Source of the DNA: Escherichia coli
GTDB lineage: Bacteria; Pseudomonadota; Gammaproteobacteria; Enterobacterales; Enterobacteriaceae
Assembly: GCF_003334765.1 (NCBI RefSeq)
Contig: NZ_QOWT01000039.1
Direction: 5' to 3' (one strand)
DNA length: 31,624 nt
The notes under the pieces are model-generated. The model searched no databases. It worked only from the letters and a program-made list of their open reading frames with translations, and was not told the origin of the DNA. Shown one piece after another: positions 22,911 to 23,708 of the stretch. Made by a program: the position numbers and the translations under genes. Numbering within the stretch: position 1 is the stretch's first letter; every line of letters begins with the position of its first letter.

Positions 22911-23708
22911 TTACCCCGGTTGTCACCCGGATCATAGTCACTTGATGTGACTATGATCCGATTAATACTCTCTCCGCTACGCAGTGTTGTAGATCAATTG
23001 CGCACTATCATTGAAATAATTACCTGCTAGTGATTATTTCAACCTACTGAATTTCATCTAATTTTTTTCACTCTATGGCAAATTAGCCATTTCAAACATT
23101 ATCATGGCTGATATTTTCCGTAGTCAGGTTTAATGTTTTAAAAGTGCTGTGGGAAAGTGAACAAAGAGTTCCGTAAGCGTTGATGCTATGGGCGGTTAAA
23201 TAAGTAATCCGGGTTCATTTTTTTGCAACTGGCGTTGATTACATTGCATAAATATCCGTGTCTCCAGACGCTATATAAAAACCTGAAGACATGAATGCGT
23301 TATTTACTCAGGTAATTTCAATGCGTTAAAAGAAAGCTGGCAATCCAATTGCCAGCTTAAGTCGAAACAAGGAGACTCGATATTTAAATCGGATTACATT
23401 TTAACTTTAGTAATATTCTTCAGAGATCACAAACTGGTTATTGATAACTTATTCTTGGGCAGTAATCCGCAAACGTTAACTTTTTGTTTGCTATTTACAA
23501 GCTGATAACAACCAGGAATCTTACTTAGGATCAATATATGGAGTGCGTGATGGATAAATCTGAAGTATTGATTAGTGTTAATAGACGTATTAGTTCACGA
23601 AGGGTAAAGTTCTTATAGGCGTTTACTATATTGAACAACGATTCGGACAAGGATGTAAATAATGAAAAGGATGACATATTCGAAACGATAACGGCTAAGG
23701 AGCAAGTT

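Follow-up and report, generated by a model that had tools for sequence, protein, structure and literature searches.

What is the role of the perfect inverted repeat that lies directly behind hdeD, on the edge of the region thought to control gadE? The window, by which we mean the whole 31,624-nt stretch of Escherichia coli DNA analysed here, covers the acid fitness island, and the stretch of it that was compared (22243-23743) is identical to MG1655 (NC_000913.3 3656900-3658400, an offset of 3634657). A first-pass annotation had described a perfect 14-bp palindrome at the boundary between hdeD and the gadE control region. Both parts of that description were confirmed: the two arms, the TTGAT loop and the 14/14 complementarity are as described, and the element begins 17 nt past the hdeD stop codon, with the gadE start at window position 23709 in both the ORF list and the RefSeq annotation (Table 1). 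RefSeq MG1655 carries no annotated feature at the palindrome, repeats included, and an E-value search with Rfam 15 over window positions 20000-26000 returned no family at 22900-23000. We consider it probable that the palindrome is a protective 3′-terminal stem-loop of the hdeD mRNA, the transcript being terminated by Rho further downstream and trimmed back to the hairpin by exonucleases.

Table 1. Window positions of hdeD, of the hairpin behind it and of the features of its downstream trailer.
Feature	Window position	Strand	Remarks
hdeD CDS, acid-resistance membrane protein	22338..22910	+	ORF and RefSeq annotation, NC_000913.3 3656995-3657567
Spacer, hdeD stop codon to stem, 17 nt	22911..22927	+	sequence and length variable between lineages (alignments)
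Hairpin 5′ arm CGGATCATAGTCAC	22928..22941	+	14 nt; pairing conserved
Hairpin loop TTGAT, 5 nt	22942..22946	+	loop sequence varies, length constant
Hairpin 3′ arm GTGACTATGATCCG	22947..22960	+	14/14 complementary to 5′ arm
Steady-state hdeD RNA 3′ end	22964 (NC_000913.3 3657621)	+	4 nt past stem, ..GAUCCGAUUA-3′; two published maps
Trailer, C>G, G-poor, A/T-rich; begins AUUAAUACUCUCUCC	22961..23120	+	candidate rut region
Highest Rho score in bicyclomycin-sensitive region	23076 (NC_000913.3 3657733)	+	coarse, 800-nt windows

The palindrome is the longest perfect hairpin of the window. When the window was shuffled 300 times under a first-order Markov model and scored for perfectly paired stems with loops of 3-10, the longest stem was 12 bp (found in 2 shuffles) and one of 13 bp or more never occurred, which bears out the earlier view that a stem of this length is unlikely to be a product of chance. 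The 91-nt RNA from 22900-22990 had a folding energy of -29.8 kcal/mol (z -4.7) when read from the + strand and of -33.4 kcal/mol (z -4.9) when read from the - strand, a stability that none of 200 shuffles attained, and the isolated hairpin folded at -23.5 and -22.9 kcal/mol on the + and - strands, respectively. The 17-nt spacer upstream also contains a weak CCGG..CCGG mini-stem, which is found in K-12 only.

A canonical intrinsic terminator consists of a G+C-rich hairpin followed by a U tract of about 7-9 nt, and release usually occurs some 7-9 nt after the stem, within that tract. The hairpin behind hdeD does not have this form. Its stem is 43% G+C and, as the first-pass annotation had observed, no U tract follows it on either strand: the + strand tail, ATTAATACTCTCTCC, has a T-tail score of 1.28 against a maximum of 7.15, with 3 U among its first 8 nt, whilst the - strand tail, GGTGACAACCGGGGT, scores 0.33 on the same scale. 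A consensus terminator scan left the hairpin unflagged on the + strand. The terminator of the ArrS sRNA (23334-23358), which lies in the same window, provides a useful comparison. Like it, the hdeD hairpin is located at an RNA 3′ end, where it would shield the transcript from 3′ exonucleases; unlike it, the hdeD hairpin has neither a U tract (the ArrS tail scores 2.6) nor an upstream A tract, and the RNA ends only 4 nt past the stem.

That an RNA 3′ end exists at this position is recorded in two public datasets, in line with the first-pass annotation, which had named hdeD 3′ ends mapped by Term-seq as the check on its proposal. Supplementary file 1 of Adams et al. 2021 (eLife, PMC7815308) reports a + strand Term-seq end at 3657621, supported by 1150 reads on average, and the 61-nt region printed with the entry places it at ...GATCCGATTA, equivalent to window position 22964. 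The end is classed there as 'orphan' because it lies 54 nt past the hdeD stop codon and the cut-off for 'primary' ends in that study is 50 nt. The entry is found in the third sheet, which is M63 glucose as assigned by the order of the caption, and the end is not called in the LB 0.4 and LB 2.0 sheets. Supplementary Data 2 of the TRS study (Nat Commun 2023, PMC10687069) contains a + strand peak at 3657617-3657627 with its dominant position at 3657621, labelled 'Primary hdeD', and this terminus was significant in three replicates (p 3e-42 to 3e-76). Its signal, a measure that takes high values where little local read-through occurs, is 0.94. The TRS entry may share samples with the Adams data, so the two maps are not necessarily independent. 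The supplements of TERMITe contained no hdeD entry and none with the coordinate prefix 36576. On the - strand, the Adams tables hold no 3′ ends at 36575xx-36576xx in any of their three conditions.

A further + strand 3′ end was reported within hdeD itself, at 3657126 (window 22469; Adams, M63 sheet), 131 nt into the ORF. It falls within a short stem (22465-22477) that the consensus scan flagged as terminator-like, and may represent either premature termination or a decay intermediate linked to an sRNA.

The sequence downstream of the hairpin has the composition of a candidate Rho loading region. The first 160 nt contain 34 C against 20 G, the C/G ratio reaching 2.0-2.4 in 78-nt windows that start at 23000-23040 and dropping below 1 from about 23080, and an excess of C over G after the hairpin was seen in 8/8 Escherichia lineages examined (K-12 and seven others). 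Moreover, DirectRNA-seq carried out with and without bicyclomycin (BCM) by Adams et al. (PMC7815308, Supplementary file 2) gave a Rho score of 6.83 (p 2e-20) at 3657733, 112 nt downstream of the mapped 3′ end. Read counts upstream and downstream of this coordinate were 101/28 without BCM and 251/475 with BCM, the downstream window being one that contains gadE promoters. As the downstream count in the presence of BCM exceeds the upstream count, part of the signal must reflect new initiation and not read-through, and the BCM response is therefore probably a mixture of both. The BCM experiment was performed in LB at OD 0.5, and of the Adams sheets only the third (M63 glucose) has the 3′ end. Taken together, Rho-dependence of termination downstream of the hairpin is supported but not proven.

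Between the hairpin and the Rho coordinate there is a second palindrome (23011-23042), which is A/T-rich and imperfect, having 13-nt arms of 92% complementarity and a 6-nt loop. No 3′ end has been reported at it, and it is partly degraded in the divergent E. coli allele described below.

This arrangement resembles a known class of transcript ends. Dar & Sorek 2018 (NAR 46:6797, PMC6061677) found that 143/144 Rho-dependent E. coli transcripts have stable stem-loops at their 3′ ends; these ends are precise, have no U-rich tail and are followed by a mild excess of C over G, and they were explained by Rho stopping transcription further downstream and PNPase and RNase II trimming the RNA back to the stem-loop. 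At hdeD, the dominant steady-state 3′ end likewise comes directly after a stable stem-loop, the tail is not U-rich and the trailer is rut-like in its C-over-G bias. Together with the downstream BCM-sensitive region, whose signal is ambiguous as set out above, the end 4 nt past the stem and the U-less tail fit the class of exonuclease-blocking stem-loops. Two differences should be kept in mind: trimming and true Rho dependence at hdeD are deduced from the class, and the hdeD stem is a perfect 14 bp with the modest G+C content given above.

The same data bear on the possibility that the hairpin itself acts as a non-canonical intrinsic terminator or pause site, perhaps assisted by NusA or NusG, and that RNA is released a few nucleotides past the stem. 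Such a mechanism would explain a precise 3′ end directly after a strong stem as well as the low local read-through implied by the TRS signal of 0.94, and the tail does have UU at its positions 2-3. We nevertheless regard it as unlikely, given the poor tail score, the three U among eight nucleotides, the negative result of the scan and an end only 4 nt past the stem, together with the account of Dar & Sorek, in which Rho-terminated RNAs are trimmed and so acquire precise ends behind stem-loops that lack U, and the presence of a BCM-sensitive region further downstream. Of the 'Rho-independent-like pause structure' offered by the first-pass annotation, the part that stands is that hdeD RNA has its 3′ end at the hairpin; termination or pausing driven by the hairpin found no support, in view of its poor tail and the position of the end.

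The palindrome was also considered as a member of a repeat family, as the first-pass annotation had asked whether other copies exist. A blastn search with a 65-nt query found one chromosomal locus in 5413/5426 complete E. coli genomes, and none of these genomes carried a plasmid copy. A query with the 33-nt hairpin returned two 'places' per genome, which we take to be a single locus, the palindrome being matched once on each strand. A repeat family of the REP, BIME or MITE type was thus rejected. The resemblance to REP/BIME elements is one of position and capacity, both being intergenic palindromes downstream of a gene that may stabilise the upstream mRNA; the hdeD palindrome differs in being single-copy in each genome, in never being plasmid-borne and in having no related copies. 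Peters et al. are said to have proposed a protective 3′ stem-loop role for REP elements earlier, in 2012.

Conservation within E. coli was assessed from 60 genomes spaced evenly through the ranking. All 33 nt were identical in 39 of the 60, two had a single mismatch within the loop (TTGAC, TTTAT) and four were changed at the outermost base only, leaving a stem of 13 bp. Fourteen genomes carried a divergent allele, which we call 'B2-type' purely as a label and not as a phylogroup call, and the remaining genome was the variant E7-1N7. In every case, excepting the wobble variants of E7-1N7, the changes were confined to the loop or the outermost pair. The B2-type allele has the loop ATTAA, and its outermost pair is T-A in place of C-G, both sides having changed; one extra C-G pair lengthens the stem to 15 bp, and the inner 13 pairs are unaltered. 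Between K-12 and the B2-type allele there are 30 differences in the roughly 175 nt from 22900 to 23075 and 0 in the 26 nucleotides of the inner stem (hypergeometric p 0.005).

The segment 22900-23075 is itself a hot spot of divergence between K-12 and the B2-type allele, extending from the last hdeD codons to the edge of the Rho coordinate at 23076, whilst the rest of the sequence from hdeB to gadE differs by about 1-2%. This divergence is masked by the 96-99% identity published for the 798-bp region among strains.

Outside E. coli, species-representative genomes were scanned for relatives of HdeD, and six Escherichia lineages were recovered, E. albertii and E. whittamii among them. In all six a hairpin was present at the same position after hdeD, so that the palindrome is kept across E. 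coli and other Escherichia, a result on which the first-pass annotation had made its proposal depend. The loop and the trailer differ between lineages, and the spacer, 17 nt in E. coli, is about 33 nt and cannot be aligned in E. albertii and E. whittamii. Loop variants comprise TTGAC, TTTAT, TTAAT, ATTAA, TCATA, GCACA and TTGTG, which are always 5 nt in length. Outside E. coli, GGAT/ATCC in the arms becomes GCCT/AGGC, two pairs being altered on both sides. Among 12 distinct Escherichia sequences, standard pairs made up 91.7% of cells, compared with 21-44% when the 3′ partner was slid by 1-3 columns; both-side changes occurred in 4/15 pairs (C-G<->U-A, G-C<->C-G and A-U<->C-G) and 7 pairs were invariant. 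The 12 sequences are kin and the paired changes thus represent few independent events. In every lineage the + strand hairpin folded at -17 kcal/mol or better.

A closer look at wobble pairs was taken with regard to the strand on which the structure forms. G.U-type variants favour a + strand RNA at four positions, two of them in E7-1N7 and two in E69. At pair 10, E. albertii, E. whittamii and E1V33 have an A.C mismatch on the + strand, where an RNA from the - strand would form G.U, giving 4 positions for + against 1 for -. On sequence alone the strand would be left undecided, since this answer is mixed, and it is the mapped 3′ end that assigns the element to the + strand. An action on the - strand, as a 3′-end structure or terminator for antisense transcripts that pass the ArrS terminator and continue into hdeD, appears extremely improbable to us. 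The hairpin is equally stable there (-22.9 kcal/mol), a second small stem that the scan flagged as weakly terminator-like follows on that strand, and the hairpin of the albertii clade is better on - (-22 kcal/mol) than on + (-18 to -19 kcal/mol). Set against this, the - strand hairpin is less stable in the E69 and E7-1N7 variants, a strong intrinsic terminator 370 nt upstream on the same strand already ends ArrS and, as described above, the Adams tables are empty of - strand ends around the palindrome.

The manner in which the arms vary also bears on whether the palindrome acts as double-stranded DNA, either as an operator for a dimeric regulator or as an H-NS/ArcA boundary acting on the distal P3 promoter region of gadE. 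In the gadE literature all 798 bp of the intergenic region count as promoter, start sites being placed at -21, -124, -324/-317 and -566, and the palindrome occupies -781 to -749 of it; ArcA-P shifts a P3 fragment, and symmetric arms at a constant spacing of 5 bp are what an operator would possess. Yet no site is mapped at -781 to -749 in that literature, even the farthest gadE start site is about 185 bp downstream of the palindrome, the change from GGAT/ATCC to GCCT/AGGC preserves complementarity while altering the bases that a protein would read, and the GATC (Dam) sites are gone in the albertii clade. Paired changes in the arms with G.U-type intermediates argue for a nucleic-acid structure rather than base-specific recognition by a protein, and we judge a role as duplex DNA to be very improbable. 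The protein-binding site put forward in the first-pass annotation was accordingly not upheld.

Two specific candidates of this kind were rejected. The core TCAC-N5-GTGA suggests a CRP-like site, but the half-sites of the CRP consensus run in the opposite orientation. Likewise, a Dam/SeqA role was prompted by two GATC sites in the arms, which are lost in the albertii clade.

Lastly, we asked whether selection has to be invoked at all. Quasi-palindromes that are hotspots for template switching occur in E. coli, and mirrored changes can also be mutational, arising by template switching within a quasi-palindrome, in which case covariation overstates selection. The hdeD element shares with such hotspots a perfect inverted repeat, an apparent inversion of the loop and changes mirrored in both arms. 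The B2-type loop ATTAA (L002 1536-1540) is the exact reverse complement of the TTAAT loop of Escherichia sp. MOD1-EC7003 (L010) and E. coli SCPM-O-B-8794 (L011), and is one change away from the reverse complement of the K-12 loop TTGAT. From these sequences, an inversion of the loop by template switching or by recombination within the palindrome is suggested. It might then be supposed that the palindrome has no selected function, having been kept perfect by template switching during replication, and that the 3′ end is incidental. The loop relationship, paired changes that could be copies from arm to arm and the rapid evolution of the surrounding 175 nt would all agree with this, and such an account retains the exonuclease-block mechanism, differing only on selection. 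However, the position of the hairpin is constant from E. coli to E. albertii while spacer, loop and trailer have been scrambled, and imperfect G.U and A.C variants persist in whole clades, which argues that correction is inefficient. Moreover, the hdeD homologue of Kluyvera cryocrescens (57% amino-acid identity) has an unrelated, perfect 10-bp hairpin in the same place, about 19 nt past the stop codon (L017 2583-2606, CGATCTACCC-GAGC-GGGTAGATCG), also with no T tract. The trailer after the Kluyvera hairpin has more G than C, unlike the Escherichia lineages. Template switching is a mutational process and not a function; it may have shaped the evolution of the element without explaining its retention, and the absence of any selected function seems to us distinctly unlikely.

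One further sequence is of a different nature. The 8.6-kb contig NZ_JAUFQN010000010.1 (L015), assigned to 'Flavobacterium paronense' CECT 8460, has both the K-12-type hairpin with its flanks and an HdeD that is 98% identical to the E. coli protein. It is almost certainly E. coli contamination of the assembly.

Returning to the protective stem-loop that we favour, the following sequence of events is envisaged. The palindrome would be transcribed as the last structured element of a monocistronic hdeD mRNA and, 17 nt past the stop codon, the RNA would fold into a 14-bp hairpin of about -23 kcal/mol. RNA polymerase would pass the hairpin without stopping and enter the C-rich, G-poor trailer, on which Rho would load, terminating transcription diffusely some 100 nt downstream in a zone that precedes the gadE T3 start (window 23143). 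PNPase and RNase II, acting 3′ to 5′, would then trim the tail until blocked by the hairpin, producing the precise end 4 nt past the stem. In this way the hairpin would both define and stabilise the 3′ end of the hdeD mRNA, and hairpin and Rho site together would keep transcription of hdeD apart from the gadE control region. The hairpin, the paired changes by which it is conserved and the + strand 3′ end are direct observations; exonuclease trimming and stabilisation of hdeD mRNA we infer from its likeness to the class of Dar & Sorek.

Other structured elements were encountered in the window. The ArrS terminator is a perfect 11-bp palindrome, behind which the - strand reads TCTTTT, with a 3′ end at 3657985 (window 23328). 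On the + strand, too, RNA ends at this palindrome, at 3658019/3658020 (window 23362-23363). That end is labelled 'antisense arrS' in Adams and "5' UTR gadE" in TRS, and the palindrome has the look of an element that works in both directions and cuts short the long gadE T3 leader. Just downstream of gadE, 24354-24425 (+) matches the Rfam sRNA ES205 (105 bits, E 2e-18); the TRS table assigns the published 3′ ends at 3659080/3659081 (window 24423-24424) to gadE,gadF, and the match is therefore the sRNA derived from the gadE 3′ UTR. Elsewhere, two identical 11-bp hairpins, AAAAAACCGAC-GCAAA-GTCGGTTTTTT, lie 231 nt apart at 14659-14685 and 14890-14916. Their sequence matches the region of the agrB 3′ end in Adams, and they are thus taken to be the duplicated terminators of the agrA/agrB sRNAs.

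The palindrome or hairpin was not described in the literature searched on hdeD terminators and Term-seq or on bicyclomycin with gadE/hdeD, nor was the palindrome mentioned in that on YdeO, ArcA/H-NS, CyaR/RprA-hdeD and AFI heterogeneity; a literature search with the literal sequence matched unrelated CEACAM primer sequences only. Its 3′ end is already known from two public tables.

An additional role can be imagined, for which we see only a small chance. Hairpin and Rho site might constitute a conditional insulator, such that a relaxation of Rho termination allows transcription from the hdeD promoter to run on through the 798 bp and into gadE-mdtEF. The trigger could be stress, from acid or in stationary phase, or repression of hdeD translation by CyaR/RprA. 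The rise in downstream reads from 28 to 475 upon BCM treatment is compatible with this, bearing in mind the gadE promoters within that window. Were it true, the hdeD promoter, which is activated by GadE, would add a read-through arm to the positive autoregulation of GadE.

With the protective stem-loop as the probable reading, an unannotated element in a heavily studied locus gains a concrete role. No general concept is altered; hdeD would be one more, unusually clean, example of an mRNA that is capped by a stem-loop and probably terminated by Rho. For the locus itself, the hdeD-proximal part of what has been called the '798-bp gadE promoter / sensory integration region' is better read as hdeD 3′ UTR and termination zone, certainly for about 55 nt and probably for about 170 nt. 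This is of relevance to the design of gadE promoter fusions, to the insertion of reporters at the 3′ end of hdeD and to how the unusually high divergence between K-12 and B2 alleles in this segment is to be read.
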